64,000 bases of DNA from assembly GCA_949841045.1 (NCBI GenBank), contig CATKXS010000001.1:60717-124716 (forward strand), read 5' to 3'. The DNA comes from an uncultured Clostridia bacterium (GTDB lineage Bacteria; Bacillota; Clostridia; Christensenellales; UBA1242). Position numbers and translations under genes: made by a program. The stretch's first letter is position 1. Every line of letters begins with the position of its first letter. The notes beneath the pieces are model-generated. The model was not told the DNA's origin. It worked only from the letters and a program-made list of their open reading frames with translations, and ran no database searches. Of the stretch, positions 32,261-58,691 are shown piece by piece.

Positions 32261-32372
32261 ATTAAACATTTTTTTTACTTTGTTTGTAATTAAACATTTT
32301 TTTTACATTGTTTGTAATTAAACATTTTTTTTACATTGTTTGTAATTAAGCATTTTTTTTACTTTGTTTGTA
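32261..32372. repeat. 28-bp tandem repeat x4 derived from the nrdD 3' end
   Basis: Units start at 32261, 32289, 32317 and 32345 and read ATTAAACATTTTTTTTAC(A/T)TTGTTTGTA; unit 4 has AAGC. The next period (32373-) is the real nrdD stop and last codons, ATTAAACATTGTGTTTTACACGG. Confidence 0.9.
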
Positions 32373-32373
32373 A

Positions 32374-34692
32374 TTAAACATTGTGTTTTACACGGTCATG
32401 TTCTTCAGCACGTTTTCCGTTATTGAATCTGTCAAGAGTCCCAACAAGGTAACCAGTAATTCTTCTGATTCTTTCAAATTCGCCTTTGCCGTCATGCTCA
32501 TCTCTTCCACAGTAAGGGCAGTGGTCGCCGATAATTCCATTATATCCGCAAACAGGGTCTCTGTCAATTGGGTGGTTGATTGCACCATAACCAATTCCTT
32601 TTTCTTTCATATGTCTGATAATTCTCTCAAATGCATCAAGGTTTTGAGATGGGTCGCCATCAAGTTCAATATATGAAATGTGACCGCCATTGCAAAGTGC
32701 ATGGAATGGAGCTTCAAGGTCAACTTTCTTTTCAGCGCTGATTGGATAGTATACAGGGACGTGGAAGCTGTTTGTATAATAATCTCTGTCAGTAATTCCT
32801 TTGATAACGCCATATTTGTTTTTGTCAATTTTGATAAATCTTCCGCTTAAGCCTTCGGCAGGAGTTGCGATAACTGAGAAGTTGAGTTTGTATTTATCTG
32901 CCATTTTGTCAGCGAAGTCACGCATGTATTTCACAATGTCGTAACCAATCTGCCATGATTTTTCGCTTTCGCCATGGTGTTTACCAGTAAGAGCAACAAG
33001 TGCTTCAGCAAGTCCGATAAAACCATAGGTGAGTGTACCATGTTTAAGAATTTCAGCAACTGAGTCGCCTCTTCCAAGTTTATCAGAGTCAATCCAAACA
33101 CCTTGTCCCATAAGGAAAGGATAGTTGTAAACATGTTTAGATTGTTGAATTTTAAATCTATCTAGAAGCTGGTCAGTAACAAGCTCAAGCATTTCATCGA
33201 GGCGAGCATAAAACTTCTTCAAATCGCCTTTAGCATCAATTGCAATACGAGGAAGGTTGATTGAAGTGAATGAAAGATTTCCTCTTCCGTATGTAATAGA
33301 CCTTTCTGGGTCATATACGTTTGCCATAACTCTTGTACGGCAACCCATATATGCGACTTCTGTCTCAGGGTGACCCTCTTTATAATATTCAAGGTTGAAT
33401 GGAGCGTCAATGAATGAGAAGTTAGGGAACATTCTCTTAGCAGAGCATGCAATAGCCTCTTTGAATAAGTCATAGTTAGGGTCGCCTGGGTTGTAGTTGA
33501 CGCCTTCCTTAACTTTGAAGATTGAGATAGGGAATATAGGAGTTTCTCCATTTCCAAGACCTTCTTCAGTTGCTTTAAGGAAATTTCTGATAACCATTCT
33601 TCCTTCTGGTGAGGTGTCTGTACCAAAGTTCAATGATGAGAATGGCACTTGAGCACCAGCACGAGAGTGCATTGTGTTGAGGTTATGAACAAGCGCTTCC
33701 ATAGCTTGGTGAGTTGCGCTGTCTGTTTCTTTAAGACTTGTTTTAGTTGCAAAGTCTTTAATCTTATTATATAGTTCATCATTAATATCGCTAAATGCCC
33801 CTCTTTCAGCTTTGTCATAAGCTTTGTTTTCTGCAAGCGTAGGGTAAACGCCTTTTTCATTTTCGATATTTTTAATTTTTTCGCAAACTTCTTCTTCAGT
33901 TAACGCTCCTGCCTCTTTGAGAACATAAGCTTTTGCGAAGTTTGTTCTATAAATCTTTTTGTATGTCTTCATAACGCCAGGTGCACACCCAAAGTCAAAG
34001 TTTGGTACGCTTTGTCCGCCATGTTGGTCATTTTGGTTAGCTTGAATGGCGATGCAGACAAGGGCAGCGTAAGTTCTGATGTCGTTAGGTTCTCTTATGT
34101 AGCCATGTCCTGTGTGAAAACCGCCTTTGAAAAGACTTAATACGTCAATTTGGCAACAAGTTTCAGTGAGAGTGTAGAAATCAAAGTCGTGAATATGAAT
34201 GTCTCCACTTTGGTGAGCTTTTGCCTGCTCTGGTGCAACAATAGCTTTTGTGAAATAGTTTTTTGCCGATTCTGAACCAAATTTAAGCATAACCCCCATT
34301 GGTGTATCACCATCAATGTTTGCGTTTTCACGTTTAAGGTCAACGTCTTTTGCATCACTGTTGTTGATTTTATCAAAAGTTTTCATCAAATTGGAATTAA
34401 GTTCTCTTGCAATGTTACGTTTGTTTCTATAAAGTATGTAAGCTTTTGCAACGTCATCGTGACCTTTTTTCATAAGCACACTTTCAACAATGTCTTGAAT
34501 TTCTTCAACTGTTGGAACAGCGCCGTCCTGATATTTTTTATCAAGTTCGTCTGCAACCGCGCTAGCAAGTTTGTGAGCAAGCTTAAGTTCACGGTCTCCA
34601 ACTGCATTCATTGCTTTAGAAATGGCAGTTTCAATCTTTTCAAGGTCGAAGGCTGTAAGTCTTCCGTCACGTTTCATAATGTTTTTTACCAT
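32374..34692 (-). CDS. nrdD: anaerobic ribonucleoside-triphosphate reductase
   Basis: I trimmed the track ORF to ATG 34692, which has an AAAGGAG RBS. It has an ATP-cone N-terminus (VKNIMKRDGRLTAFDLEKIETAISKA), a C-terminal Zn site (CGYNG...CPYCG) and the glycyl-radical motif RRITGYL. Confidence 0.95.
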   Translation of the reverse strand: MVKNIMKRDGRLTAFDLEKIETAISKAMNAVGDRELKLAHKLASAVADELDKKYQDGAVPTVEEIQDIVESVLMKKGHDDVAKAYILYRNKRNIARELNSNLMKTFDKINNSDAKDVDLKRENANIDGDTPMGVMLKFGSESAKNYFTKAIVAPEQAKAHQSGDIHIHDFDFYTLTETCCQIDVLSLFKGGFHTGHGYIREPNDIRTYAALVCIAIQANQNDQHGGQSVPNFDFGCAPGVMKTYKKIYRTNFAKAYVLKEAGALTEEEVCEKIKNIENEKGVYPTLAENKAYDKAERGAFSDINDELYNKIKDFATKTSLKETDSATHQAMEALVHNLNTMHSRAGAQVPFSSLNFGTDTSPEGRMVIRNFLKATEEGLGNGETPIFPISIFKVKEGVNYNPGDPNYDLFKEAIACSAKRMFPNFSFIDAPFNLEYYKEGHPETEVAYMGCRTRVMANVYDPERSITYGRGNLSFTSINLPRIAIDAKGDLKKFYARLDEMLELVTDQLLDRFKIQQSKHVYNYPFLMGQGVWIDSDKLGRGDSVAEILKHGTLTYGFIGLAEALVALTGKHHGESEKSWQIGYDIVKYMRDFADKMADKYKLNFSVIATPAEGLSGRFIKIDKNKYGVIKGITDRDYYTNSFHVPVYYPISAEKKVDLEAPFHALCNGGHISYIELDGDPSQNLDAFERIIRHMKEKGIGYGAINHPIDRDPVCGYNGIIGDHCPYCGRDEHDGKGEFERIRRITGYLVGTLDRFNNGKRAEEHDRVKHNV

Positions 34693-39276: not shown

Positions 39277-41166
39277 GTGGAGGTTAACTTGCAAAAAGCC
39301 TATTCATTATTTTCTTTAAAAAAGAGGATATTAGCAGTACTTCTGGTAATATCCTTTATTTTTTGTTCGCTAATAGTCAGACTTTTTGTCATTCAAATTA
39401 TAAATGGAAAAAGTTTGCAGTCACGTGCGACCGACCAGTGGACTAGAGACCTTTCAATCGTTGCGCCTCGCGGGACAATCTATGATAGAACAGGCTCTAC
39501 TCTTGCTGTGAGTTATACCACTTATAATGTCTATGTCAGAGGACGAGAAGTCATAGATAAGTCTGAAATTTCTGTTCATTTATCTCAAATATTAGATTTA
39601 TCATTCGAAAGTGTTTACACGAAATTAACCAAGAAAAATGCCAGCGAAGTTTTGATTAAAATGCAGATTGAAGGTGATAAAGCGGAAGAGATTTATAGAC
39701 TCGGTCTTCCAGGCGTTTACCTTGCGGAAAACTCAAATAGATATTATCCTTATGGAAATCTTCTTTCTCAGGTGCTTGGGTTTATAAGTGTTGATAATGC
39801 TGGACAGACGGGAATTGAGGCCTATTATAATGATTATCTAAAGGGTAAAGATGGTTATAGTTATGTTCAAAGCGACCTACAGGGAAAGGAAATAGGTGGT
39901 TCGCTCAGATACTATGTTGGCGCAACTGCAGGCAAAGATTTAAACCTTACAATTGATAGTAAAATGCAACTTATCGTTGAACAAGCGCTGGAAAAAATAA
40001 TGGTGGAACAAAAAGCAAAAAGTGCAACGGGTATTATATTAGATGCCAAGACTGGCGAAGTGCTATCGCTTTCAACCAAGCCAAGTTTTGATTTAAACGA
40101 AGTACCTCGTGATGACCTCGAAGCACTATTTGAACAAAGTAAAGTTAAACCTGCAACAGATATTTATGAGCCAGGTTCAACTTTTAAAATTCTTACCGTT
40201 GCAGCAGCACTCGAGGAGGGGCTTACAAACCTTGAAGATAGGTTCTATTGTCCAGGATACCGCGTTATAGATGGCATTAGAATAAAGTGTTGGAGAACTA
40301 TCGGACATGGTAGTCAGACCCTTTCTGAAGCCTTTGCAAACTCATGTAACTGCTGTTTTATGGACCTCGCTTTAAGGCTTGGTGTCGACAAGTTTTATAG
40401 TTATATGGAAAAATTTGGTCTTGGCAAGAAAACAGGACTAGATGTGACAGGAGAGGCAAGTGGAATTTTAATGGCGAAAAAACTGGTTAAAAATGTTGAC
40501 CTTGCTCGTATGGGCTTTGGTCATGCTATTGCTCTTACTCCAATGCAACTTCTGTCAGCTGTTTCATCAATTGTCAATGGTGGAACATTCAATAGTCCGC
40601 ATTTAACACAAACTCAGACCTCTTCACAAATGAGAAAACAAAGCGGTATTATAAGCGCAAAAACCTCTCAAACTGTCAATGGACTTCTCGAATTTGCCGA
40701 AAATAAAACTGGGAAATATACCTTTGTAGAAGGCTATAATGTAGGTGGAAAGACGGGTACAGCTCAGAAATATAAGGAGACAGGCGGAATTGACAGCGGA
40801 AAGTACGTTTCCAGTTTTGTTGGGACTTATCCAGCAGACAACCCACAATATATTGTGTTTGTCATGGTAGACGAGCCAAGTAATGGTGCATATTATGGAA
40901 GTATTGTTGCTGCTCCTTATGGCAAAGAAATATTTTTAAACCTATTTGATTATCTTGACGAAAAGAAACAAGATGAGAGTGCTGTGGTCGAATATGTGCC
41001 AATGCCTGACCTTGTTGGAAAAAGCCTTGCCGAATGTGCGGTTATTTTAAAGGAAATCGGACTTGAATATGAACTTGACGGAGAAGGTGAATATATAGAA
41101 AGACAACTTCCACCAATCGGAACTTCACTTGCAAAAGGCTCAGTAATCCTCTTGGTTACAACTTGA
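39277..41166 (+). CDS. class B penicillin-binding protein (FtsI/PBP2B type) with a C-terminal PASTA domain
   Basis: It has an N-terminal TM, the transpeptidase motifs STFK, SCN and KTGT, and a PASTA-like C-terminus (VPMPDLVGKSLAECAVILKEIGLEYEL). The track start is GTG 39277. TTG 39289 sits 5 nt after GGAGG (39279-39283) and may be the real start. The stop is TGA 41164-41166. Confidence 0.9.
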   Translation: MEVNLQKAYSLFSLKKRILAVLLVISFIFCSLIVRLFVIQIINGKSLQSRATDQWTRDLSIVAPRGTIYDRTGSTLAVSYTTYNVYVRGREVIDKSEISVHLSQILDLSFESVYTKLTKKNASEVLIKMQIEGDKAEEIYRLGLPGVYLAENSNRYYPYGNLLSQVLGFISVDNAGQTGIEAYYNDYLKGKDGYSYVQSDLQGKEIGGSLRYYVGATAGKDLNLTIDSKMQLIVEQALEKIMVEQKAKSATGIILDAKTGEVLSLSTKPSFDLNEVPRDDLEALFEQSKVKPATDIYEPGSTFKILTVAAALEEGLTNLEDRFYCPGYRVIDGIRIKCWRTIGHGSQTLSEAFANSCNCCFMDLALRLGVDKFYSYMEKFGLGKKTGLDVTGEASGILMAKKLVKNVDLARMGFGHAIALTPMQLLSAVSSIVNGGTFNSPHLTQTQTSSQMRKQSGIISAKTSQTVNGLLEFAENKTGKYTFVEGYNVGGKTGTAQKYKETGGIDSGKYVSSFVGTYPADNPQYIVFVMVDEPSNGAYYGSIVAAPYGKEIFLNLFDYLDEKKQDESAVVEYVPMPDLVGKSLAECAVILKEIGLEYELDGEGEYIERQLPPIGTSLAKGSVILLVTT

Positions 41167-41473
41167 GGAGGCTTAGGCAGATTATTGCGGAACAATTTTG
41201 ACTGGTGATTTCAACCTGCTTAACTATAAAATGTGGCTAAGCCTCTTGCGGAACAGAAAAAACTAAGATTGTATATACTTCAAAAAACAAAGTGGCTAAG
41301 CCACACGATAAAAAGCGAATAATACGCGCGGATAATCTGCGGAATGAAACGAGTTTAAAATAGTAATATACTTTACGATAAAAAAGCAGATAATCTGCAA
41401 AAAGCGGATAATCTGTGGAACAGAATAAATTTAATATTGAAATATACTTTACGATAAAAAGCGGATAATCCGC
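41167..41473. repeat. palindrome-rich degenerate tandem repeat region
   Basis: It contains 13-bp odd-centred palindromes: GTGGCTAAGCCAC 41292-41304, GCGGATAATCTGC 41328-41340, GCAGATAATCTGC 41386-41398, GCGGATAATCTGT 41404-41416 and GCGGATAATCCGC 41461-41473. ATATACTT(T)ACGATAAAAAGC units begin at 41273, 41366 and 41442. T(G/C)(C/T)GGAA(C/T) follows four of the motifs. GAGGCTTAG (41168-41176) is complementary to CTAAGCCTC (41237-41245). Confidence 0.85.
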
Positions 41474-41502
41474 TTGGTTAAAAATTAAAAATATAGTATA
41501 AT
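41474..41502 (+). promoter_or_regulatory. promoter placed for a leaderless mRNA of the first YugP-like gene
   Basis: TTGGTT (41474-41479), a 17-nt spacer, then TATAAT (41497-41502), then atagtt and ATG 41509. No SD is present. Confidence 0.45.
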
Positions 41503-41508
41503 ATAGTT

Positions 41509-42231
41509 ATGGTAAAAACTTGGATAATAATTATAGGCATAATTGCTGTTTGCTTACTTTTATGCTTTCTTCTTGCAATTGCAAATTTTTCTGGCGAACG
41601 CTTTATGGAAAAATATGAAAAGATGAATGGAATTGATGCAAATACAAATTTATCGCCACTTGAATTTATAAATTATGTTTTGGGTAAATTCTTTGGCTGT
41701 AAAATGGAAATTGTTCAAATTTCAAACATAGCGGGAGACGCTTATAGCAAAGGCAAACTTTTTCTTTCAGGAAATACTTTGCATTTAAGAACACTTGCCT
41801 CTTATACCATAATTGCTCACGAAATGGGGCATGCAATGCAAGATAAAACGGGCAACAAATTAAAACGCCTTGCCCTCTTAAGAAAACTTGGTCGTGTGCT
41901 TGGAAGACTTATGATGCCAAGCATAATTGCTGGAATAATTTTACTCTTTTTTGGCCAAACACTTTTTATAGTGGGGTGCACCTTAATTGCACTTGGAATT
42001 TTAATTTTTATCCTTGCACTCATTATCAAACTCATGACAATATCCATTGAAAAAGATGCGTCAAACAATGCAATGAAATTTCTCGCTGAAATATTTGAAG
42101 ATGACCAACTTAAAGTTTGCAAGAAATTCCTAAATGACGCACGACTTACTTACTGGGCAGAATTTTTAAGAATTATTCTTGGCTGGACGGGTGCTTCACG
42201 AAAGGGCAAATTGTTTAATTTGATAAGATAA
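41509..42231 (+). CDS. YugP-family (Zn_peptidase_2) membrane zinc metallopeptidase, paralog 1
   Basis: 240 aa. It has an N-terminal TM, the HExxH motif IIAHEMGHAMQD, and central TM helices. Confidence 0.8.
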   Translation: MVKTWIIIIGIIAVCLLLCFLLAIANFSGERFMEKYEKMNGIDANTNLSPLEFINYVLGKFFGCKMEIVQISNIAGDAYSKGKLFLSGNTLHLRTLASYTIIAHEMGHAMQDKTGNKLKRLALLRKLGRVLGRLMMPSIIAGIILLFFGQTLFIVGCTLIALGILIFILALIIKLMTISIEKDASNNAMKFLAEIFEDDQLKVCKKFLNDARLTYWAEFLRIILGWTGASRKGKLFNLIR

Positions 42232-43095: not shown

Positions 43096-43127
43096 AAAAA
43101 AATCCACGACAAATGCGTGGTTTTTTT
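43096..43127. terminator. bidirectional terminator downstream of glyQS and the YugP pair
   Basis: An A7 run, the stem CCACG (43104-43108), the loop ACAAATG, the stem CGTGG (43116-43120), then T7. Confidence 0.55.
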
Positions 43128-45376: not shown

Positions 45377-45464
45377 TTTTACTCCTAAATATATCTAATA
45401 TATATATTAACATAAATACAGCGGATAGTCAATATTGAAATTTTAAAAACTATAATAATTAAAC

Positions 45465-45493
45465 TTTACATATTGATTTTTTTGTGATAGAAT
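45465..45493 (+). promoter_or_regulatory. candidate extended -10 promoter upstream of repeat copy B
   Basis: TTTACA (45465-45470), a 17-nt spacer, then TAGAAT (45488-45493) preceded by TGa. Confidence 0.45.
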
Positions 45494-45518
45494 AAGTCCT
45501 ATAGGAGCATTTATCCCT

Positions 45519-45584
45519 TTTGGAGCGACTTAGTCGCTATGCGAACATTCGTTCAAATGTTCATACACTAAATGTTTGGTGGAG
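45519..45584 (+). repeat. 66-nt repeat element, copy B (contains CGAAC-N4-GTTC), forming the 5' UTR of the 191-aa gene
   Basis: TTTGGAGCGACTTAGTCGCTATGCGAACATTCGTTCAAATGTTCATACACTAAATGTTTGGTGGAG. Its GGTGGAGG end serves as the SD for ATG 45590. Confidence 0.85.
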
Positions 45585-46218: not shown

Positions 46219-46413
46219 GGGTATTATACCCTTTTTTATTATATGAAATATCTTTTTTTGTATACTTTTCAACGTATTCCTGAGGGCATTATGCCCTTTT
46301 TATTATGTGAAATAATTTTATTTTGAATATTTTTCGACATATTCTTGAGGGCATTATGCCCATTTTATTAAACAAATATTGTTATTTAGAATACTTTTCA
46401 ACGTATTCTTGGT
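46219..46413. repeat. 65-bp tandem repeat x3, each unit a terminator hairpin plus a copy of the ABC-F gene 3' end
   Basis: The hairpins are GGGTATTATACCC 46219-46231, GGGCATTATGCCC 46284-46296 and GGGCATTATGCCC 46349-46361. Each is followed by a T-run on the + strand. The period is exactly 65 bp, and the fourth period is the real coding end of the reverse-strand ABC-F gene. Confidence 0.9.
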
Positions 46414-47962
46414 ATGTGCCTGTAAAATCTATAATTTTATTTTCATCGACAATATCTATAATTCTGTTTGCAACAGTCTCAATAATTTCTTGGTCATGTG
46501 TTGCAAATAGAAGGTTGCCTCTGAAGTTTAACATTCCTTTATTGAGGGCAGTGATAGATTCAAGGTCGAGGTGGTTTGTTGGCTCGTCGAGGAGAACGAG
46601 GTTGCCTTGTTCAAGCATCATTTTTGCGAGCATACAGCGTACGCGTTCACCACCAGAAAGCACGTTTGCAGGCTTGAGGTTTTCTTCGCCAGTGAAGAGC
46701 ATTCTTCCAAGCCAACTTCTTATATATGTTTCGTTTTGGTCAGTTGAAAATTGTCTGAGCCAGTCAACAATTGAAGATGTATTTCCTTCAAAATATTCAT
46801 TGTTATTTTGAGGTAAATTTGTCATTTTTATTGTCTTTCCGACGAACACTTGACCGTGGTCTGGTTTTTCATTTCCGAGGATAATATTGAATAAAGTGGT
46901 TAAAATTTGGCTATTTTTTGCAAAAAAAGCCACTTTTTGCCCCTTTTCTATGTTAAAACTGAGATTTTTGAACATTCCAGACTTGGTAAGGTGGTCAACT
47001 TTCAAAATTTCTTTTCCAATCTCTTGAGTGTATTCAAAGTTGATATAAGGATACTTCCTTGAAGAAGGTTTAATGTCTTCAATAGTAAGTCTTTCGAGTT
47101 CACGTTTACGGCTTGTAGCCTGCTTTGATTTTGAGGCATTTGCAGAGAAACGGGCAATGAATTCTTTAAGTTCTTTGGCGCGTTGTTCTGCCTTTTTATT
47201 TTGGTCTTTCATCTGTCTTAAAATAAGTTGACTTGACTCATACCAGAAATCGTAGTTTCCGATGAACATGTTGATTTTGCCATAGTCAACGTCGCAAATG
47301 TGAGTGCAGACTTTGTTTAAAAAGTGACGGTTGTGGGATACGATAATGACAATGTTTTCAAAGTCTAAGAGATACTCTTCAAGCCAGCGAGAGGTTTTAA
47401 AGTCGAGGTTGTTTGTAGGTTCGTCCAAGATAAGAATATCAGGATTTCCAAAAAGTGCTTGAGCAAGCAAAATTTTAACTTTGACTTTTGCGTCAAGACT
47501 TCCCATTGTCTGTTCAAAGAGAGCCTCTTCAATTCCTAAGTTTTGAAGTAAACTTTTTGCTTCGCTTTCAGCTTCCCAGCCACCAAGCTCAGCAAATTCA
47601 GTTTCAAGTTCTCCTGCGCGAATTCCGTCAGCTTCGGTAAAGTCCTCTTTCATATAGAGTTCATCTTTTTCCTTTTGAACCTGCATAAGTCTTTTGTGGC
47701 CAAGTAGGACGGTGTTTAAAACTGTTTCATTGTCGTATGCGTTTTGGTTTTGGGCAAGAACAGACATGCGTTCACCAGGCGTGATAAAAATTTCACCGGT
47801 GTTAGGTTCGATTTCCCCAGTGATTATTTTGAGAAGGGTGGATTTTCCAGCGCCATTTGCGCCGATAACTCCATAACAATTACCTTTTGTAAATTTAAGG
47901 TTAACGTCTTTATAAAGCACTCGTCCACCAAAGGCGAGTGAGATGTTTGATACTTGTAACAT
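46382..47962 (-). CDS. ABC-F family ATPase (YbiT/YkpA-like, soluble tandem-NBD protein)
   Basis: 526 aa with two NBDs and no TM domain. NBD1 has Walker A GANGAGKST, and there is a charged inter-domain linker. NBD2 has the signature LSGGERVR and Walker B LVLLDEPTNHLD. The NBD2 Walker A is degenerate (AKNSQILTT). It has an AAGGAG RBS. Confidence 0.9.
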   Translation of the reverse strand: MLQVSNISLAFGGRVLYKDVNLKFTKGNCYGVIGANGAGKSTLLKIITGEIEPNTGEIFITPGERMSVLAQNQNAYDNETVLNTVLLGHKRLMQVQKEKDELYMKEDFTEADGIRAGELETEFAELGGWEAESEAKSLLQNLGIEEALFEQTMGSLDAKVKVKILLAQALFGNPDILILDEPTNNLDFKTSRWLEEYLLDFENIVIIVSHNRHFLNKVCTHICDVDYGKINMFIGNYDFWYESSQLILRQMKDQNKKAEQRAKELKEFIARFSANASKSKQATSRKRELERLTIEDIKPSSRKYPYINFEYTQEIGKEILKVDHLTKSGMFKNLSFNIEKGQKVAFFAKNSQILTTLFNIILGNEKPDHGQVFVGKTIKMTNLPQNNNEYFEGNTSSIVDWLRQFSTDQNETYIRSWLGRMLFTGEENLKPANVLSGGERVRCMLAKMMLEQGNLVLLDEPTNHLDLESITALNKGMLNFRGNLLFATHDQEIIETVANRIIDIVDENKIIDFTGTYQEYVEKYSK

Positions 47963-48204: not shown

Positions 48205-48251
48205 ATAAATAGTACATTTTGATTTAACCAAAAAAAGAAATGAGGTGTCAA

Positions 48252-51200
48252 ATGAGAAAAAAGAATAGCGAAAAGAAGAAAGACTCAAAGTTGAGGATTA
48301 AATGGAAAACCTGGATGACGGTTGTGACCGTTATTGCGGTTGTATTTTTAATCAGCGGAGCAACCGTGCTTGGCGTATATTTGTCAGGTGGTTTTAACGA
48401 AAAGGTTGTTTATCCAGAGAGCATTGAATTCGATTATGGAAATAACCGCTTTGTAAATAATCAACTTGAAGTAGAGGAAGACTTTACACTTACTATCACC
48501 ACGCCAACGAATCAAGTCACTCGTGATACTTTGACATTGTCTTTTGCAGGTGATGGAATTATTGAATCGAGAGATGGCAAAATTTCAAATGGTTCTATCG
48601 AAGTCCCTCAAACTGTTACCATTGGCAGACCTTTCACTGTGCACCTTTTGACTAAAAACTTGGTTGATGAGAATGGGACGCCAGTTCTTGATTTAAATGG
48701 AAATTACATAGACTGGATTGCAGGCGGCATTTCAACACTTGTAGCTCAGTCGCAAAACATTCAAATTCCTTCAATAAGCGTTCGTATCGCAGTAGACGTT
48801 CCTGTCTATGACACTCAAACTATTATTTACAATTCTCTAGGTGAAGAGGTTACTCAGGTTGTTAAAAATGAAAGTTTTACTGTTAAGACAAAATTCTTGC
48901 CTGCAAACAGCGAATATATGTACAGTGATGACCTAAGTAGTAAGGCTGAAAACGAAAAACGCAAAAAGACCTCTTTCTATGAAGCAGTAAGCACAGAAAA
49001 TCTTACAACTGTCTATGACAGCAAAACTGAAGTTCATTTTGTGGCAAAGAATGTCATTGATGACGGAATTACAATCAACAATTATACTTTTAAAAATGCA
49101 ATCAGTCAGCTTAACTATGAGGCAGAAAATGAAGAGACGACAAATGGCGAACTTTATTATAACGATGCTTTGAGATATTTAAGTGACAATTCAAGCATAG
49201 CAAAACTTTCACGTGCGGTTGTTTCAATCGGAGATGAAAGTGTAGGCAACTTTACAGTTACAAAAGAAGGGCAAAACCTTTCAATGAAAGTGGAAGAGCC
49301 ATTAAAGTTATATCTCAACAATTATCCTTATGAGGCACTCGCCGATTATCTTGGTATAAATATCTATTCAACCTCAGGAAGAATTCTTGATAACCTTCTT
49401 CCAAACATAGTTTTAAGTTTTGATTATAACGGCAAAGACCCAACACTCGGTGATGACAAAATACTTGAAATCAGCGGTGGAGAGGTGATTGACTTTGAAG
49501 GCACGCGTTACTATAAACCTTTCTCAGAGGGAATAAACAACTTCCGCTATTCTTACTGGAACATTTCAGCTAAGGAAGAGGGGGATGTAACAGTATTTAT
49601 TTCACTTCTTTTGAATGATGACACAACTCTTTTTGAGCAGGTGGCTGGCACTCCATTTAGAAGAAATGTTAGACTAACAATAAAAAAACATGAGGAGCTT
49701 CCTCCAGTTTGGCTTGACCAAACTAGAGAAGATGTACTTCTTGACTATACTGTTGTAGAAGGTGTAAGCACGTTGGCTCCTAAGACAATCGACCTTGGAA
49801 GCAAGGTGGAAGTCCCAAGCGAGAATATTTACAAAGATTACGTATTCTTTGCTTGGTTTGGAAATGGACAAATTGAAGACTACACTGAGAAAGCAAATTC
49901 TATTCTAAGAAATGGTTATATTAGAGAAAGGTCAAAAATTTATGAAACAACAAGTGGAAGGCTTACACTTTTCGCACTTGACGGAACGAGCATAACTCTA
50001 TATGATACGGGTGAATTTTCAATTTATGTTGCCACTATCAGACCAGAACTTACTGATGACGGCTATTATCAAATCGTTGAACTAGCAAGTGGGTCAAAAA
50101 GTGTTGTTGTAAAAAAATCACTTTACACAGACTCAGTAGAGGAGTTTACACTTGATGTTGCAGATTTCCCTTCGATGGGAGCAAATGAAATCAGCATAAA
50201 TCAGGGCAGTGAATCAACCTTTGGAATAAGTTTCATTGTTGGTGCAACATCTGTACCAGTTTTCAAAGATGAATTCCAAAAAGGATTTATGACTCCAAAA
50301 ATTTTGGATATTGCAGGAAACGATATTACAGATTACTTCAACTTTAATGAAGGCACTCTTACTACTGGTGACGAATCCGAAAATGCAACTTTAGAATATA
50401 GAGTAAGCGCAAAACCTTCTGTTCAACTTGAACAAACATTAGGTGTTTATCTTGGTTATGTTGCACTTAATTATAATAACGGCGAAAATGACATTACTTG
50501 GGAAATGCCTCTAGGAAGCGACCAAAGAATAAATGTTTATAAACCACAAGCTTCACTTATTGAACTTAGTGACAATGAGATTAAAAATGCTTTGCTTGGT
50601 GGCGGAGATATAGAAGTTGAACAATACTTAACTTCGGCCGGCGTATTTAATACAACGATAGTTGTTTCACTTCCAAATGGTAATGAAAGAAGATTCTCAA
50701 ATGTTAGCGATTTTGTAAATGCTTTTGTAGGGGTTGATGGTGCTCTTATAAAAATTACCGACCAAAAATCCAAAACAGACACTTTGACTGGGCAATGGAA
50801 TTTTGTTATAAGCGGAGATGAGACAGGCGCTATTGAACTCTCTTCTGATGGCAAGTCATTTACATTTAAGAATACCGATTCTGAAGATTTTGTTCCCGTT
50901 TCACTTCTTCTTCAAAGTACAGACGGAAACGCAACCGTAAAGGGGAATAATAACCAAAATCTCGTTATAAACTTTAAAGTAAATTCAACTGGAATTACAA
51001 AAATAGCGTATGATAACGAAACATTAAAAACATATAATTCAATCCTTTCAGCACCAACTGAAGAGACAGCAAAAGCTGTTGTAAGTAAATATGGCGCAAA
51101 AGGAAATGGCTCAGAGGTTATCACCTTAAAGAGTTTAATTAATTTCTATTGCATGGATAATAGTGGCAATGATATGGAATATACAAGAGTTTCATTTAAA

Positions 51201-54200
51201 TTCAATCCACAATATTATTCAAGTGCAAATCTTTCAGATACTCAAATTGTTGACCTTTATGGCCCAGACGGCATGCTTACGCTCTATAATGGCGACAATG
51301 TTTTGAGCTTTAGCGGAGATTATTCTGCTGAGAATATTAGAAGTACTCTTGCTTCAGCAATAATTTCAAATATTAAAATCAACAAAAACTTTGCTTCTTA
51401 TCATACTGTTCAACTTATGGTTACAGATGAAAGTGGTGCAGTAAATACAAGCTTTGACCTTGAACTTCGTCCAAATTATGTAGTAACTAGAGAAAATTAT
51501 TCTCAATATGCTGGCTCAAACTTTAGGCTTGCAAACACTGTTTCAAACCTAAATTTAGATGGCATACAAGATAGAATTGATACTCTATTCGACCCAAATG
51601 CAACTTATTATGTAGTGCTTGATAATATTGCTGGAAGTTATAAACTTGTTAAAAGCACGCAAGCAGTTATTGGAGCTATAGGAACATACAATCCTGGCAG
51701 TTCAACAATTACATTTGCAGACTTCTGGGATACTGAGCAAAAGATTTTCACAGTTCAATTCCAACCAGAAGGAGAAAACACATTTGCTCTTAATCATTCA
51801 ATAACCTTTACAATCAACCGCGACCTCGTGGTAACAGACGAAAAGGGTGTGTTCTTCGTACTTGGTCAAGCAATGGAAATTTCTGACTTTGCAAAGATTA
51901 CAAGACATGACGGAAGTCCAATAAACAACTTGAGCGTATCTTATACCTTTGAAGATTATCTTATGATGAATGGCTCAAGAGTTGTAAGAAAGGAAGACAG
52001 TGATTTCTTCTTTGATTATAATCAGATTTCACTCCAAACAAAACTTACAATTTCAAATGGAAACACTATATTTGATGAATTTAATGTTACAATTAAACTT
52101 TATGACACAGATGACGTTTACAATTTCCTTGCAAGTAAATTTACAATTGACACAAACAATGAGAGCATGAAAGGTCTTTCAGCTCGCAGCCAAATTGTCA
52201 ATAATGGAAAAGAAGATGTAAATTATATTGTTTTCCCAGCAAACGTTGGTGCAAGCTGGAATGTTGCAAACATTGACGATTACAAACTTCAACCAATGAT
52301 GGTTGACCATGACAACAATAAACTGCAGAACTTCTATGAAGTTGTAAATACTCGCATCACATTCAAAATGCAAAATCTTCACATTCTTCTCACTGGCTTA
52401 AATGATAATACAAGATATATAGCTGTCAGACTTCAAGCAAACAATGTTGTACTTGCGACAATGAATATTCCTGTCATCATTTCTCAAATTGGATTTGACA
52501 GTGTTGTTTATGAAAATGGAGAAATTGCTGATAATAGAGTTCTTGAAACAGCGCTCACTCGTCCTGAAACATTGATAGCAAATGGTATCTATAATGAGAT
52601 TACAGCTGGTCAACTTTCAGAAATATTGACTCAATATGATATGTCAGTTTATAGAAAAGAAAGTGAAAATAATGGAAGTGGCGAGGCCGAAGTTATTTGG
52701 AATGGAAATATAGAGAAGGGCGGTCTTTACATGCTTAAAGACTTCACTCCTTCATTTGAGACATATCTTCTTGACAATAACTATGATAATTATGCAGGTT
52801 TAGTAAAGACAAGACAAGTTACTAGAGAAAATGCAAGTCTTTTACTTAACCACTTAAATGATAACGTATCGGACGCTTATATCGCATTTATTTTTACAAT
52901 TAATAAGAGTGGAAGTGGCAACAGCCAATCATTCTATTATGTATTGAAAGTTAAACCTGATGTTAAAGTGGAAAATTCTCTTTATGCTTATAATGGCAAT
53001 GTTGAATACATTAAAGGTCAAAGCGATTATAATAATGAAATTGACCTCGAAGCACTTTTCAATAATACGACATTAAATGAAGGGTTAAAGAGATTTATGG
53101 TAAGTAAAACTCTTACCATGCAGAGCAGTTATGAACTTGAACTTAACGTAACGACAAGAAGTAGCATAAGATTCACTTTTGGTGAAGATGAGATTTTAAG
53201 AAGTTATGGAGTGGGAACAGTTACTGTTGACTTAAATGATTATTTTAAAGGTGCACTAGTAGACGGCGCTGAAATTGAGATTACTATCATTGAAGGCGAT
53301 GCTACAATCAGCTACAAAGGCGTTAAAGTATTCAAAACACTTAAGTTTACAAATAAAGTCACATCAGTTGTGGTAGGTGAAAAGACTTACACAACTCAAG
53401 ACGCCTGGAAAGATACAATTGCTCTATCATTCTCAGACGATGGAAGAAAACTTATCTATAGACCTCTTATTACAAATAGAATTACATTTACAATTGAGCG
53501 AAGCTATATAGGTGGCGGTGAAGATGACCTCGCGGTCATTGGTGGAGTTCAAACCTTTACATTTATTCTCAATGATGACGAAGAAATTCTTGCAGTCAAC
53601 TTTGGAAATGAAGAAAGTACAGACTATGTAGTTGAAATCAAAAATGGTAGCATTTCAAGTTATGAAATGAATATAAACCTTATCAAGAAAGAAATGTCTG
53701 GCTCTACAATCGGAATTACTATTTACGATAGACTTAACATAAGTCTTATTAGTGGAGGCGAAAATGTAGCTGGATATACTTATGACAATTCTAGGGAGAG
53801 TCAGGGTAAATTTACTCTCAATCTTAAAAATTATATCAATTCTGACAAAAAAGTAGTGTTTGCAGTGTATACAGCTCAAGGCTATCTTGCAACTCTTACT
53901 TTTGAACTTAAAGCAAATGTTACTTATTATCCAAATGAAAGTACAACTACTCTCGAAGGTGGAAAAGATTATATCTTAAATACACAAGAATTTATGAAGC
54001 TTACTGTTCCTTCTAAAACTGAAGAGGGAAGAGAGGAAATTCTTACAAGTGGACACTTTAATATAACCGATGTAACAATCTCTGGCACTGGCAAAGACTT
54101 TGTCAAGATTAGCGGAAATAATATGGAAATTGCCGACCTTATTTCAGATAAAGAGGTTACAATTACTTATACAGTTACATTCACTTCTCTTGCTTCTGAA

Positions 54201-57200
54201 TTTGGAATTGAAGATTTGACATTCATTTTCTCTCAAACTTATGTTTTGAAACAAAATGTCAGTGCAAAGACTTCTGTCGCATCTTCAGTAGAAACAATCG
54301 CAGGACAAAATCATGTTATTGATACAACAAGTCTTTATAATATGATTACAGGAGAAAGTCTGCGCGATGACACCAAAATAAAAATTGAAGCTTCATCTTC
54401 AAGCCCAGCTTTTGGTGGAATTACAGATAATATTATATCGACAAACTATATTGCAAGCAGTGTAATGCTTGAACTTACATTAAACGTTTCAATTTCAAAC
54501 GATGATAAGACTTGGCAAAACTTTGCACTTTCTTATTCATTCGCAGTTTTACCTGCAGTAAAATTTGAGACAAATTATCCAATTCCAAACTCAAATGGAG
54601 AAATGGAATTTGAATATATTGAAAACGATTCAACTTTTGCAAACATTTTGACAAATTTCTTGTCAAATAATGCAATCTTTAGCGATAAGGCTCGTATTGA
54701 AGCATTTGAAGCAGTAACTGATAATGGAAAGGTAAGTTATCAAACCACTTCATCACCAATCACTGCTGAAAACTTAAGTATACTTGTTAACTCAAGAACA
54801 AACGCAACAGTGCTGGCTGATGGAAGAATTATTGGCGACAATGAACAAATTCCAAATGGAGCAGAAGTCAAATTCTCTCGCGGTTCAACCAGTGGAAATG
54901 ACGCAGTTGTAGAACTTGGAATTACTTACAAAGCGGTTTATATTACCTATAAAATCAAGATTATTAGCAATTCAATTACGCTTACTCCTCAATCGGTAAC
55001 AAACTATAGCCTCTCTGGTTCTTACACAGCTGAGGGCGGAAATGACACAGTATCTTATGAAAAGATATATATAGATAAGACTTCATCAAACAATATATTT
55101 GCTGGTGAAAGACTTGTTTATGCTCAGCTTAGCGATGTTATGGCAACTTATGCTAATGAATACTATTTCGTATTTAGAAAGGTTGTCGAAAGTGAAATTA
55201 ATGGCGACCAAGAAAGTGATGTCTACAATTATTACGCTTCTTATCCAATTTACATTGCTTCAAGTGACCAAAGTAATACTCGTTATTATGACCTTGGAAT
55301 TTCATTTGCAGGCAAGGAGTTTGTAGGTGCTTATGAAGCCTCATTATTTGAAAAGAGACAAATAAGCATCAATGGAGAAGAAAGGCAATTAAAAATTAAA
55401 GAAATAATTGTTTCAGAAAATGAACAACAAGTTGTTGAAAGTGACATTACATCAGAAGATAAACTTCCAGCAAACTTAGCTTATACTTTATTTAAACTTG
55501 ATGAAGAAAAGCCTATTGTTAAACTTGCAAATAGACTTCAACTCATCTATGGTGTTGACGAGCAGGGAGAAGATATTCTTGTAGATTATGAAAAATATTC
55601 TTACTTAGGCGAGTCACTTATTAAAGAGTTCAATCTTACTAAGGCAAACACAGTTCTCAACGAAATAAGAAAAGAGCCGGTTCAAATTACTCTTTCAAGA
55701 AATGACGGTTCTGGCAAAAGCCATAACTTTAGTGTAAACTATTATTATATGGCAAGCATTGATGTCGATGTGGAAGAAAAGGCGACAACCCTTGCAAATA
55801 CTGTACCAGTTGAAGTTAACAAAGAAGAGTCAAGTATAAATTCTCTTCTTGGAATCAAGCATCCTACAACAGGAAGAATAATTTCAGCTTCTGATTTTAC
55901 AATGGGTGATAGACTTACTTTCAATATAATCTATTCTTCTGTTGAGACTTTAAGGGGAGAAAATTCCTCTGTTGACGAAAATTATAGAGATATAGTTGAT
56001 TCATACTACACGAAATTGAAAATTAATTCTTTCAATCGCTATGTAGATGATAAAGGTATTGCTCCTACAGATGGTAAAAATATTTACCTATATAGAAGTG
56101 CGATAAGCAATTCAAGTGATTGCGTTTATGATTACAGTATAATGCCATTTGGTGCAAAAAACCTTGGTGATTATGTACTTGGTGAAATTGTTTATAGCGT
56201 AGGTGAATTTGAACTTAAATTCTATGTAGTATTCCATATCAGTCCAGACTATGTTGTTAAATTTAAGGGCAATGTTGAAAATTCAGTTACAGAAGCAGAT
56301 GGTGCAATAATTTCAAACTTTGGTGATAACCTTATTGAAACTATTGCTGAAACAAAACTTGATAATGGAAGTATTGTATATGAAGATTTCATCTTGACTG
56401 GTGAAAAGGGTGTTGTTTCAATAATTCATGATAACAGTACTGGCGAGAAGTATGAACAGGCAGTAAGAAACTTTAAGCTTTATATGCCTCTTAATACTAT
56501 TGTTGAATCAAGAACATATAATAAGCAGGATAATATAGAACAAAAGATATTCTATGATAATAATACTGCTGTAAACGCGAATTGGGAATACAACGAAGAG
56601 ACTTTAAGCTATGATTATAAACTTGCTCAAGTATCTCCATATACCGATGTGACATTCACAAAAGTCAAAGAAGTAATTTTCGCAGAACAATACTATATGA
56701 TTGAAGGCGTTGACCCTTACTATTATACTTACAGATTGTATTTCAAACTGGCGGTTACAAAGGGCACACCAAGAATCTTAGGAAGTATGTCAATTGTCGA
56801 AGATGAACTATTCGATTTTGGTGTTCAATATCAACAAGTGACAATGAATTCAGCGGGAAAACGTCAAGAAGATAGCAAAAATATTTATACTTACAATATG
56901 AATGCATCTTCTCTTCGTACGCCAGCTTCAACAGATGGAAATGTGAAACTTCTTAACTTCACAGGTATTGAAGCATGGGAATTTGACCTTGATTATACTA
57001 ACGAACATGTAAATGCAGTATTGAACTTGCCTTCAATCCTTGATTATAATACCGATGAAAAAACGGAAAATAAACAGGTTTATAAACCTGGTGCAACCGA
57101 GATTGATAATGGAGAATATGAGGAGGGTACAGGAAGAACCGGTCACATTGAAGTGCTTGACGGTGAGGAATACTTCAGTTATCCATCACTTGATTACATT

Positions 57201-58691
57201 TCAATTGATAGCGTTGCATTGTATGACCCTAACACTGACACAATTTTAAGTGAAGTACTTACAAATGGTGGAGAGAAGGGCATCGCGTCTCCAAGAGAAG
57301 ACGCAAATTCATCTTCTTGGGTATTTGCAACAAACGGAGCTGATAAATTTGGAAGAATTGTAACAGAAACGGTTGGCGATGAAACAGAGACAGAAGAGCC
57401 TGTTACTATTGAAAGTGGCAACAGAGTTAGAGGTGTCTATGGCATGAAAGAAGATGGCAAGACTTATAATGACAATCTTTGGAAGATGCCAAGACTAAAA
57501 GAGTCTTCAATATTCAATGGTGCACCATCAGTCAAATTAAGACTTGTTGTAACTCTTAAATATTATGACGAAAAGAGCGGAATTACCGAATTTTGTGATT
57601 GTCCAGTTGAAATAACTGTAGTCAAGAAGGCAAATGTTGTTTCAGGTGATGATAGAGTTGTTAGAGATGGTCAAACTTTTGCAGTTGAAGATAAATTAAT
57701 TATTCCAGAAACACTTGAAGATGACGTAAGAATAACAAAATATCTTAACGATACGCTCGAAGTGCTTGTTCCAGCAAATCAAACAATAAGCGTTGATATT
57801 GAATTGACAAGACCAGGCCGCGAAGAGCCATTTACAGGCAGAATATCTCTTCCTGAGTCGGGCATTGCAGCTAGCTATGCAAGAACGTCTTATGTATCAA
57901 TTTCAAATGTACTTGGAATAACAGTAGCGCAGGGAGATACACTTAGAATTACAAATGTGTCAAACAATTCAACAGAATTCTACTATATTACAAATAGCGG
58001 TGAAAACAATGCTATTGTAAATAACAAAATTCTTGGAAGCGAAATTGCTGACAAACACTTTACTATTTCACAAATATTCAATGACGTTGTATATGTTGAA
58101 AATGCTTCGCTTTTAGGCTCTAGTGCAAGTTATGGCATTACCAAATCTTATATTGCTCTTTGCCAATATACTGCTACAGAAAAAGATTCTGAGGGCAATG
58201 ATGTACTTATTGATAATCATGAATATGCTTATCAAGTAAATGCTCCATATGTTGTTACAGGTTATATCTACAAGCTTGAAAGAAATTACAATTATGAAAT
58301 CGGCTTTGAAATTGAAACTACTTTTGAAAATGGACAATGGACAAAGGCAGAACTTTCAAATTGGGAAACAGCTTATAATCTCATTTTAGGCGAAACTAAG
58401 AATGGTGGAGGAATATCTAACGGTCAAATTGATGTAGACTTCAAGATTACTAGAGATAACTTCAACTACTTTAGATTCTCAAGTGCAACAGCTGGCGTGG
58501 GAGAAACAAGCGTTGGTAAGGCGATTGTCAACTCTGACGGTAGCATTCAGCTTGACCCAAGCTTTACAAAAGACCAGTATATGAAACTTGTGCTCGAACT
58601 TGCTGTTTCTGGCGCGGACAGAGATATAACAAATGACAGCGATGCAACTTATCTCAGACTTGATACTTTAAATCTTGGTGTAAAATCATAA
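48252..58691 (+). CDS. giant membrane-anchored surface protein (about 3,480 aa), no recognisable domains
   Basis: The frame is open from 48240 to 58691. I prefer ATG 48252, which follows GAGGTG (48242-48247). The N-terminus is MRKKNSEKKKDSKLRIKWKTW followed by the single TM MTVVTVIAVVFLISGATVLGVYL. The rest is Asn/Thr/Ser/Val/Tyr/Glu-rich and almost Cys-free, with no further hydrophobic segment. Confidence 0.9.
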   Translation: MRKKNSEKKKDSKLRIKWKTWMTVVTVIAVVFLISGATVLGVYLSGGFNEKVVYPESIEFDYGNNRFVNNQLEVEEDFTLTITTPTNQVTRDTLTLSFAGDGIIESRDGKISNGSIEVPQTVTIGRPFTVHLLTKNLVDENGTPVLDLNGNYIDWIAGGISTLVAQSQNIQIPSISVRIAVDVPVYDTQTIIYNSLGEEVTQVVKNESFTVKTKFLPANSEYMYSDDLSSKAENEKRKKTSFYEAVSTENLTTVYDSKTEVHFVAKNVIDDGITINNYTFKNAISQLNYEAENEETTNGELYYNDALRYLSDNSSIAKLSRAVVSIGDESVGNFTVTKEGQNLSMKVEEPLKLYLNNYPYEALADYLGINIYSTSGRILDNLLPNIVLSFDYNGKDPTLGDDKILEISGGEVIDFEGTRYYKPFSEGINNFRYSYWNISAKEEGDVTVFISLLLNDDTTLFEQVAGTPFRRNVRLTIKKHEELPPVWLDQTREDVLLDYTVVEGVSTLAPKTIDLGSKVEVPSENIYKDYVFFAWFGNGQIEDYTEKANSILRNGYIRERSKIYETTSGRLTLFALDGTSITLYDTGEFSIYVATIRPELTDDGYYQIVELASGSKSVVVKKSLYTDSVEEFTLDVADFPSMGANEISINQGSESTFGISFIVGATSVPVFKDEFQKGFMTPKILDIAGNDITDYFNFNEGTLTTGDESENATLEYRVSAKPSVQLEQTLGVYLGYVALNYNNGENDITWEMPLGSDQRINVYKPQASLIELSDNEIKNALLGGGDIEVEQYLTSAGVFNTTIVVSLPNGNERRFSNVSDFVNAFVGVDGALIKITDQKSKTDTLTGQWNFVISGDETGAIELSSDGKSFTFKNTDSEDFVPVSLLLQSTDGNATVKGNNNQNLVINFKVNSTGITKIAYDNETLKTYNSILSAPTEETAKAVVSKYGAKGNGSEVITLKSLINFYCMDNSGNDMEYTRVSFKFNPQYYSSANLSDTQIVDLYGPDGMLTLYNGDNVLSFSGDYSAENIRSTLASAIISNIKINKNFASYHTVQLMVTDESGAVNTSFDLELRPNYVVTRENYSQYAGSNFRLANTVSNLNLDGIQDRIDTLFDPNATYYVVLDNIAGSYKLVKSTQAVIGAIGTYNPGSSTITFADFWDTEQKIFTVQFQPEGENTFALNHSITFTINRDLVVTDEKGVFFVLGQAMEISDFAKITRHDGSPINNLSVSYTFEDYLMMNGSRVVRKEDSDFFFDYNQISLQTKLTISNGNTIFDEFNVTIKLYDTDDVYNFLASKFTIDTNNESMKGLSARSQIVNNGKEDVNYIVFPANVGASWNVANIDDYKLQPMMVDHDNNKLQNFYEVVNTRITFKMQNLHILLTGLNDNTRYIAVRLQANNVVLATMNIPVIISQIGFDSVVYENGEIADNRVLETALTRPETLIANGIYNEITAGQLSEILTQYDMSVYRKESENNGSGEAEVIWNGNIEKGGLYMLKDFTPSFETYLLDNNYDNYAGLVKTRQVTRENASLLLNHLNDNVSDAYIAFIFTINKSGSGNSQSFYYVLKVKPDVKVENSLYAYNGNVEYIKGQSDYNNEIDLEALFNNTTLNEGLKRFMVSKTLTMQSSYELELNVTTRSSIRFTFGEDEILRSYGVGTVTVDLNDYFKGALVDGAEIEITIIEGDATISYKGVKVFKTLKFTNKVTSVVVGEKTYTTQDAWKDTIALSFSDDGRKLIYRPLITNRITFTIERSYIGGGEDDLAVIGGVQTFTFILNDDEEILAVNFGNEESTDYVVEIKNGSISSYEMNINLIKKEMSGSTIGITIYDRLNISLISGGENVAGYTYDNSRESQGKFTLNLKNYINSDKKVVFAVYTAQGYLATLTFELKANVTYYPNESTTTLEGGKDYILNTQEFMKLTVPSKTEEGREEILTSGHFNITDVTISGTGKDFVKISGNNMEIADLISDKEVTITYTVTFTSLASEFGIEDLTFIFSQTYVLKQNVSAKTSVASSVETIAGQNHVIDTTSLYNMITGESLRDDTKIKIEASSSSPAFGGITDNIISTNYIASSVMLELTLNVSISNDDKTWQNFALSYSFAVLPAVKFETNYPIPNSNGEMEFEYIENDSTFANILTNFLSNNAIFSDKARIEAFEAVTDNGKVSYQTTSSPITAENLSILVNSRTNATVLADGRIIGDNEQIPNGAEVKFSRGSTSGNDAVVELGITYKAVYITYKIKIISNSITLTPQSVTNYSLSGSYTAEGGNDTVSYEKIYIDKTSSNNIFAGERLVYAQLSDVMATYANEYYFVFRKVVESEINGDQESDVYNYYASYPIYIASSDQSNTRYYDLGISFAGKEFVGAYEASLFEKRQISINGEERQLKIKEIIVSENEQQVVESDITSEDKLPANLAYTLFKLDEEKPIVKLANRLQLIYGVDEQGEDILVDYEKYSYLGESLIKEFNLTKANTVLNEIRKEPVQITLSRNDGSGKSHNFSVNYYYMASIDVDVEEKATTLANTVPVEVNKEESSINSLLGIKHPTTGRIISASDFTMGDRLTFNIIYSSVETLRGENSSVDENYRDIVDSYYTKLKINSFNRYVDDKGIAPTDGKNIYLYRSAISNSSDCVYDYSIMPFGAKNLGDYVLGEIVYSVGEFELKFYVVFHISPDYVVKFKGNVENSVTEADGAIISNFGDNLIETIAETKLDNGSIVYEDFILTGEKGVVSIIHDNSTGEKYEQAVRNFKLYMPLNTIVESRTYNKQDNIEQKIFYDNNTAVNANWEYNEETLSYDYKLAQVSPYTDVTFTKVKEVIFAEQYYMIEGVDPYYYTYRLYFKLAVTKGTPRILGSMSIVEDELFDFGVQYQQVTMNSAGKRQEDSKNIYTYNMNASSLRTPASTDGNVKLLNFTGIEAWEFDLDYTNEHVNAVLNLPSILDYNTDEKTENKQVYKPGATEIDNGEYEEGTGRTGHIEVLDGEEYFSYPSLDYISIDSVALYDPNTDTILSEVLTNGGEKGIASPREDANSSSWVFATNGADKFGRIVTETVGDETETEEPVTIESGNRVRGVYGMKEDGKTYNDNLWKMPRLKESSIFNGAPSVKLRLVVTLKYYDEKSGITEFCDCPVEITVVKKANVVSGDDRVVRDGQTFAVEDKLIIPETLEDDVRITKYLNDTLEVLVPANQTISVDIELTRPGREEPFTGRISLPESGIAASYARTSYVSISNVLGITVAQGDTLRITNVSNNSTEFYYITNSGENNAIVNNKILGSEIADKHFTISQIFNDVVYVENASLLGSSASYGITKSYIALCQYTATEKDSEGNDVLIDNHEYAYQVNAPYVVTGYIYKLERNYNYEIGFEIETTFENGQWTKAELSNWETAYNLILGETKNGGGISNGQIDVDFKITRDNFNYFRFSSATAGVGETSVGKAIVNSDGSIQLDPSFTKDQYMKLVLELAVSGADRDITNDSDATYLRLDTLNLGVKS

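Follow-up and report, generated by a model that had tools for sequence, protein, structure and literature searches.

A hairpin-bearing repeat array, probably a lineage-specific tandem cluster, between a PBP gene and a leaderless-type yugP promoter in an uncultured Clostridia bacterium

Repetitive extragenic palindromes and the mosaic elements built from them (REP/BIME) are dispersed through intergenic DNA in clusters of alternating orientation and have an associated transposase, RAYT. The BOX elements of Streptococcus pneumoniae have the modular layout boxA-boxB(n)-boxC. Here we describe an array of short palindromes in a 64,000-nt stretch of DNA (the window) from an uncultured Clostridia bacterium (assembly GCA_949841045.1, contig CATKXS010000001.1, positions 60,717 to 124,716). 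The array fills the 342-nt gap between the stop codon of a penicillin-binding protein (PBP) gene and the ATG of yugP1, the first of two zinc-peptidase genes (Table 1). On balance, we favor the explanation that a family of short, hairpin-bearing repeats has formed a lineage-specific tandem cluster in this spacer, between the PBP stop and an ancestral yugP1 promoter. As a class, it probably belongs with the short hairpin-bearing intergenic repeats (REP-, BOX- or minisatellite-like) and has no dedicated function.

In each repeat unit of 57-58 nt, a GC-rich palindrome of 13 nt, with a 5-bp stem and a TAA loop, precedes a (T)GGAACA(G)AAWAAA box, an AT-rich body of ~20 nt that contains ATATACTT, and ACT..ACGATAAAAA, which leads into the next palindrome. 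Four full units (a, b, e and g) follow one another head to tail, together with duplications of the hairpin alone, from c to d to e and from f to g, and all of the units and their flanks are in direct orientation. With its head-to-tail degenerate units the array qualifies as a tandem repeat or minisatellite. Duplications are visible at scales of 18, 58 and 76 nt. Tandem Repeats Finder (TRF) reported periods of 76 and 18, and a repeat search found the 57-nt pair at 41328 and 41404 to be 82% identical and counted two occurrences of TTGCGGAACA, with the variants TGCGGAAT and TGTGGAACA also in the array.

A preliminary description of this DNA, made from the letters alone, had listed five palindromes (GTGGCTAAGCCAC, GCGGATAATCTGC, GCAGATAATCTGC, GCGGATAATCTGT and GCGGATAATCCGC), two near-copies of them, TGCGGAACA-type words after hairpins and a unit-start word, ATATACTT, at 41273, 41366 and 41442. 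Reading the sequence, we found all of these where they had been placed. The repetition it had noted also stands, but its unit lengths of 93, 76 and 67 nt do not, as these are composites in which the 57-58-nt unit is lengthened by inserts of a hairpin alone (18 nt, and 23 + 13 nt). The palindrome is strongly concentrated here. A genome-wide count of GCRGATAATCYGC had been suggested; over the window, on both strands and with at most one mismatch, the count is seven against 0.13 +/- 0.39 in shuffled sequence, with all seven matches in 41328-41473 and none outside.

The right two-thirds of the array is present in two independent assemblies, so we do not consider it an assembly artefact. One contig (L001) contains the array from 41293 on with four single-nucleotide polymorphisms and the other (L002) contains it from 41444 on, and both encode a YugP1 identical to that of the window. 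Both of these contigs, the only others with the locus, end inside the repeats, meaning that the array breaks short-read assemblies. Several other origins were considered and dismissed. Translated units carry stop codons, which argues against decayed coding sequence, and the small open reading frames (ORFs) in the array (20-34 aa, no Shine-Dalgarno sequence) are not credible as genes. It is not a CRISPR (clustered regularly interspaced short palindromic repeats) array, as the stretches between hairpins are homologous to each other (82%) and no cas genes were seen in the window.

Comparison of the spacer in relatives, which had been put forward as a check, bears on the age of the array. The order rsmH, ftsL-like, PBP, yugP1, yugP2 is kept in six relatives (48-78% YugP1 identity), with synteny judged only where the contig of the relative reaches the upstream genes. 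The array is missing at the same site in all six, and none of their spacers has the palindromes: these measure 41 nt in L030, 46 nt in L004, 58 nt in L034, 65 nt in L037, 71 nt in L003 and, with unrelated direct repeats, 244 nt in L031. The promoter, by contrast, is shared. A TTG-type -35 is common to all seven genomes (the window and the six relatives; 48-100% YugP1 identity), and in six of the seven a 17-nt spacer leads to a TAAAAT or TATAAT -10 hexamer that stands exactly 6 nt before the ATG. There is no Shine-Dalgarno sequence ahead of yugP1; 17 of 22 window genes have one. A -10 hexamer 6-7 nt before the start, no Shine-Dalgarno sequence and a conserved arrangement are what define a leaderless promoter at the sequence level, and the leaderless promoter predicted earlier is therefore upheld by its conservation in seven genomes. 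Because the relatives share the promoter and lack the array, we infer that the promoter is ancestral and that the array is young and lineage-specific.

The 244-nt spacer of L031 (3757-4000) is an independent expansion in another lineage, built from different direct repeats (AAATCAAT…AAAATCACAAAAA, twice), and the PBP-yugP1 junction seems to tolerate insertions. For the exact PBP and FtsL-like proteins of the window, no identical sequence is on record. The PBP ORF has a mechanical GTG start at 39277 without a Shine-Dalgarno sequence, and the true start is probably further downstream. The gene ends with three consecutive minor codons (ATC, CTC, TTG) and has the sole TGA stop among 13 long genes.

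The unit is also found at a second locus. A metagenome scan with a pattern for 22 nt of the unit returned 12 stretches, of which eleven were chance coding matches on contigs of 42-57% GC, including a recurring NDKKRIIRA coding stretch. The twelfth, L046 (29% GC), has homologous units between convergent genes for GluRS and a 12TM_1 ABC permease, a locus that we also found in L053, L057, L061, L062 and L064, the last three of which have a GC content of 36% and carry housekeeping genes. The locus comprises two units and, in all, three hairpins (GCGGATAATCCGC, GCGGATAAT(A/C)CGC and GTGCCTAAGGCAC), with all of the hairpins in the sense of the upstream GluRS gene. A hidden Markov model (HMM) built from the window units alone matches the first of these units (u1) from end to end (E = 1e-5 to 2e-4 in 250 kb), and in the part of u1 that was not forced by the search pattern the exact words GGAACAGA and AAATTTAA are in register. 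This is a meeting point of two convergent 3' ends, with no promoter to regulate. The units are missing from the second-locus relatives L070 (84% permease identity) and L071 (71%), and L070 shares 16 nt of identity with the body of the other unit (u2).

In L046, L053 and L057, a four-gene island is additionally inserted beside the second-locus array. It encodes an AAA ATPase (608 aa), a radical-SAM protein (181 aa) and two proteins without assigned function (722 aa and 366 aa), and looks like a mobile, possibly defence-related cassette. The island occupies 2790-8510 of L046 (the same locus as in L053) and is also carried by L052 and L054-L060; it ends at …GGTACTGACCTT(A), and the right flank differs in most contigs carrying it. 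In L046, the island is located in the loop of a hairpin, AGAATAAACCTTATTCT, just downstream of GluRS. In L070, ~75 nt of the GluRS/ABC spacer (4597-5044, 448 nt) are enclosed by a perfect inverted repeat of 24 bp (CGGCTCCTTGACACGGCAAGCGAA and its complement), and the spacer also has a perfect terminator with a 13-bp stem, half of which is common to unit u2 of L061.

Searches elsewhere returned nothing related: viral contigs were scanned with three patterns (the lone match, L073, is coding), plasmid and phage collections gave no blastn match, and no paper was found that contains the palindrome string. We also looked for signs of mobility. Miniature inverted-repeat transposable elements would show terminal inverted repeats, a target-site duplication and empty sites in relatives. 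Empty sites exist in relatives at both loci, and the palindromes at unit ends act only trivially as inverted repeats. A clear target duplication was not found, and a 21-nt direct repeat (41144-41164 / 41466-41486) is ambiguous. An insertion logic of the IS200/IS605 style, with TTAC and an AAAG guide, was rejected as the TTAC is not conserved at the second locus.

The two arms of the hairpin vary together. Across 12 hairpin copies with six pairs per copy, 95.8% of cells are paired and both sides have changed in four of the six pairs, values that none of 500 shuffles reached. The compensatory changes are C-G to U-A, G-C to A-U, G-C to C-G and A-U to C-G, and the half-sites differ among copies (GCGGAT, GCAGAT, GTGGCT, GTGCCT). 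Covariation of this kind points to a hairpin or a template-switch process rather than to a fixed protein operator. Perfect stems can arise and persist through template switching even in the absence of selection (PMC8794818).

This bears directly on an earlier proposal that the palindromes are operator sites for a dimeric regulator. In concrete terms, a dimeric transcription factor would bind them and control the yugP promoter, with the last site centred near -42. The palindromes do form perfect 6-1-6 repeats, they are strongly over-represented locally, and the last perfect one (41461-41473) abuts the -35 TTGGTT, just as first reported. We nevertheless regard operators as very improbable and did not retain the proposal, because the sites are absent from all six orthologous promoters, the half-sites vary by compensatory change, which fits a hairpin better than a protein site, and the same palindromes stand between two convergent gene ends at the promoterless second locus. 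In addition, there is no regulator among the array neighbours (rsmH, ftsL-like, PBP, yugP1, yugP2, glyS), none of the 10 window proteins scanned against Pfam is a transcription factor, and the motif occurs nowhere else in 64 kb. Motifs of the Fur, Zur, DnaA-box, LexA and CsrA types were compared by eye only: not one comes within a single mismatch or occupies a conserved position.

The hairpins might instead act in RNA. In the read-through transcript of the PBP gene, they and a 78-nt stem-loop could stabilise 3' ends or partially insulate yugP from the dcw cluster, or their minus-strand copies could be terminators that stop antisense transcription into the PBP gene. Both strands of the spacer fold better than shuffled sequence (plus strand -81 kcal/mol, z = -4.2; minus strand -66.7 kcal/mol, z = -3.2), and the covariation of the arms is in keeping with an RNA element. 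Hairpins e and g retain G-U pairs and therefore fold only as plus-strand RNA; on the minus strand they do not fold. The array starts 1 nt past the PBP stop codon, and joint termination of transcription by small hairpins clustered close to stop codons has been proposed (PMC8355165). The long-range complement noted earlier just after the PBP stop is real, forming a 16-nt inverted repeat that is 88% complementary. The resulting stem appears in both the minimum free energy and the centroid structures, begins 1 nt past the stop and includes a GGAGG. This perfect GGAGG, directly after the PBP stop, is the foot of the 78-nt stem-loop (window 41140-41175).

Other properties speak against an RNA element. 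Each plus-strand hairpin is weak (-2 to -5.6 kcal/mol; two clear terminators in the window are at ~-10 to -12 kcal/mol and the central one of L061 at -15.7 kcal/mol), and none is followed by a U-tract. On the minus strand, T5-T6 follows three of the eight hairpins, as had been observed (3 sites, 1.2 +/- 1.2 expected), but with stems of -0 to -5.6 kcal/mol, so that on neither strand are these hairpins intrinsic terminators in the usual sense. The copies at the second locus do not preserve the T-run (TTACTATCG in two of the three), and the units there are in both senses relative to the two convergent mRNAs. The neighbouring glyS has its own bidirectional terminator at 43104-43120, and the relatives manage without the array. 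RNAalifold found no conserved structure beyond the 5-bp hairpin on either strand, and Rfam gave no match at gathering thresholds (best E = 1.1-8.2, far below cut-offs). Given that only a 5-bp hairpin is conserved and that its orientation to transcription differs between contexts, a dedicated structured RNA, which had been suggested as well, is not borne out. A role in the PBP transcript or against antisense transcription is unlikely as the main explanation, although the array could have a modest effect at the RNA level, by protecting the mRNA 3' end, by partly shielding yugP from read-through out of the dcw genes or by weakly terminating antisense transcription.

Where the unit came from is a separate question. 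The units could be decayed tandem duplicates of the ancestral junction (the last PBP codons and the promoter region), with the GluRS/ABC copy being secondary. The PBP 3' end (41144-41164) is 86% identical to 41466-41486, with a local alignment score of 27 against 15.2 +/- 2.3 in shuffles, reached by 3 of 2000 (p about 0.0015). Over ~50 nt, units g and e align with the PBP-yugP1 junction of L034, the closest relative (matched in 2/500 and 1/500 shuffles), and these scores are equalled by just 0.24-0.48% of AT-rich control windows; we take this likeness as suggestive only. Against such an origin, an HMM of the hairpin and its flanks misses the PBP end and the junction of every relative, the p-values are borderline after multiple testing, and the similarity to the yugP1 5' end is not significant (518/2000 shuffles). 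The -35 region beside hairpin h aligns with the promoters of relatives and therefore need not be a duplicate of the PBP end. The 16 nt of unit u2 that are orthologous to local sequence at the second locus point in the opposite direction. We consider an in-situ origin quite improbable. A more specific model, in which the GGATAATCC core was born at the joint of a PBP-end/yugP1-codon duplication, was dropped because of the yugP1 result (518/2000) and the presence of the unit at another locus; what remains of it is the borderline PBP-end similarity.

What lends the in-situ idea some appeal is that this genome does make arrays out of the ends of genes. Two other arrays of the window start at the 3' end of a gene. 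At the ABC-F gene (46382-47962, minus strand), 46219-46408 consists of 2.9 tandem copies of a 65-nt unit, which repeats the final ~30 nt of ABC-F (…QEYVEKYSK and stop), followed by ~20 nt and a hairpin, GGGCATAATGCCC. The C-terminus QEY(V/I)EKYSK is conserved in L066 and L030, both without this array, so we infer that the array is a local duplication of a gene end and a hairpin. Another array (32261-32392, between nrdD and nrdG) has a 28-nt unit in 4.7 copies that resembles the last ~20 nt of nrdD including the stop, and on the plus strand its units have a weak AT-rich hairpin followed by T8. The ease with which this genome builds arrays of gene ends and hairpins supports a mutational over a functional explanation. 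The preliminary description had also considered that the palindromes are decayed copies of a terminator-bearing repeat like the one at 46219-46413. Decayed copies of a repeat with a hairpin or terminator come closest to the evidence; membership in the same family does not, as the 46219 array is a separate, locally born one and the HMM match between the two arrays is not significant (E = 4.7-9.6).

Elsewhere in the window, another perfect 13-nt palindrome with a TAA centre (GCGACTAAGTCGC, 45525-45537) lies in a divergent spacer (45377-45571), where it adjoins an inverted repeat, GAACATT…AATGTTC. There are giant ORFs at 876-20288 (6470 aa) and 48240-58691 (3483 aa), and homologues of 2693-3603 aa flank the same neighbourhood in L066-L069.

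Returning to a lineage-specific tandem cluster, the explanation we prefer, the array may have grown by replication slippage or unequal recombination between modules of an A-tract plus a hairpin. Complementarity of the arms would be maintained by weak selection for the hairpin or by template-switch (quasi-palindrome) correction, and the array would have no dedicated regulatory role. At its right edge, the ancestral leaderless-type yugP1 promoter appears to survive intact. Modest side effects are likely: the PBP gene of the dcw cluster is ~300 nt further from the yugP promoter, and eight small hairpins and the 78-nt stem-loop are added to the read-through transcript. Three minus-strand copies resemble weak terminators.

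Several points weigh against this explanation. Neither the 64-kb window nor ~250 kb of related low-GC DNA yielded another copy, just two loci are known, and "dispersed" therefore rests on few data. The second-locus sequences share no genes with the window and may come from another species. We found no transposase, no terminal repeats with target duplications and no other mobility signature. The covariation and the conserved flanks (GGAACA, ACGATA) at two loci could reflect selection for function instead. The partial local similarities (PBP 3' end, L034 junction, L070) point in different directions as to the origin of the unit. A bolder and, in our opinion, rather unlikely idea is that the unit belongs to an undescribed mobile or copy-pasted family of hairpin repeats in uncultured low-GC gut Clostridia, settling immediately downstream of stop codons, with the hairpin kept by selection and modulating the 3'-end stability or read-through of the upstream gene. 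Such a family would be a Firmicute counterpart of REP with its own mobilising enzyme.

Table 1. Positions of the array elements and flanking features in the window.
Feature	Position	Strand	Evidence or remarks
PBP 3' end (…AKGSVILLVTT, stop TGA 41164-41166)	41127-41166	+	ORF 39277-41166
Long-range stem (41168-41183 paired with 41230-41245) around degenerate hairpin a (41177-41189) and the body of unit a	41168-41245	+	
Unit a, most diverged: TGCGGAACA box, body, hairpin b GTGGCTAAGCCTC (41233-41245)	41186-41245	+	nhmmer E = 1e-11
Unit b: TGCGGAACAGAAAAAA, body with ATATACTT, perfect hairpin c GTGGCTAAGCCAC (41292-41304)	41247-41304	+	
Hairpin-only duplications: ACGATAAAAA, hairpin d GCGAATAATACGC (41315-41327), hairpin e GCGGATAATCTGC (41328-41340)	41305-41340	+	
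Unit e: GCGGAATGAAA box, body with ATATACTTTACGATAAAAAA, perfect hairpin f GCAGATAATCTGC (41386-41398)	41339-41398	+	82% identity to unit g
Hairpin-only duplicate, 18 nt: AAAAA and hairpin g GCGGATAATCTGT (41404-41416)	41399-41416	+	TRF period 18, 1.9 copies, 94% matches
Unit g: GTGGAACAGAATAAA box, body with ATATACTTTACGATAAAAA, perfect hairpin h GCGGATAATCCGC (41461-41473)	41415-41473	+	Best HMM match, E = 3e-13; in L001 and L002
yugP1 promoter (predicted): -35 TTGGTT 41474-41479, 17-nt spacer, -10 TATAAT 41497-41502, 6 nt, ATG 41509-41511	41474-41511	+	Seven-genome alignment; no Shine-Dalgarno sequence
yugP1 (Zn_peptidase_2), first of two tandem paralogs	41509-42231	+	

For annotation, the practical outcome is that the region should not be labelled an operator array or a small-RNA gene. 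As the array illustrates, the arms of short DNA palindromes can come to covary within repeat families that have no protein or RNA function. The predicted promoter of the yugP zinc-peptidase pair, leaderless-type and common to seven genomes, is a by-product that is perhaps more useful than the array itself, and the repeated building of arrays from gene 3' ends and hairpins in this genome is a second one. Should the family turn out to be dispersed and under selection, the uncultured Clostridia would gain a REP-like class of elements.

Compared with known systems, the hairpins of the array resemble intrinsic (Rho-independent) terminators in having T5-T6 after three of them on the minus strand, but they differ in their weak 5-bp stems, in that both flanking genes are on the plus strand, and in that the T-run is not conserved elsewhere. 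Within the window, the array resembles the one at 46219-46408. In both, head-to-tail units of ~60 nt combine an A-tract, an AT-rich body and a 13-nt palindrome whose core is ATAAT; both also start at the 3' end of a gene and are missing in relatives. The 46219 units are plainly copies of ABC-F, whereas a local origin of the array described here is only suggestive and its unit also occurs at a second locus. The BOX elements share with it a modular organization in Firmicute intergenic DNA, a module of ~45-60 nt amplified in tandem and predicted stem-loops, but the array has no distinct terminal modules and no sequence relation to BOX. From REP/BIME it differs in its 13-nt palindrome with a 5-bp stem, in its direct rather than alternating orientation, in the lack of sequence similarity and in the number of copies, with two known loci as opposed to hundreds per genome; no RAYT (Y1 transposase) gene was seen in the 64-kb window. 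With the REP/BIME of Proteobacteria, the array shares short GC-rich palindromes with complementary arms and conserved flanks, set in AT-richer intergenic DNA and clustered just 3' of stop codons, in 3' untranslated regions or intercistronic spacers.

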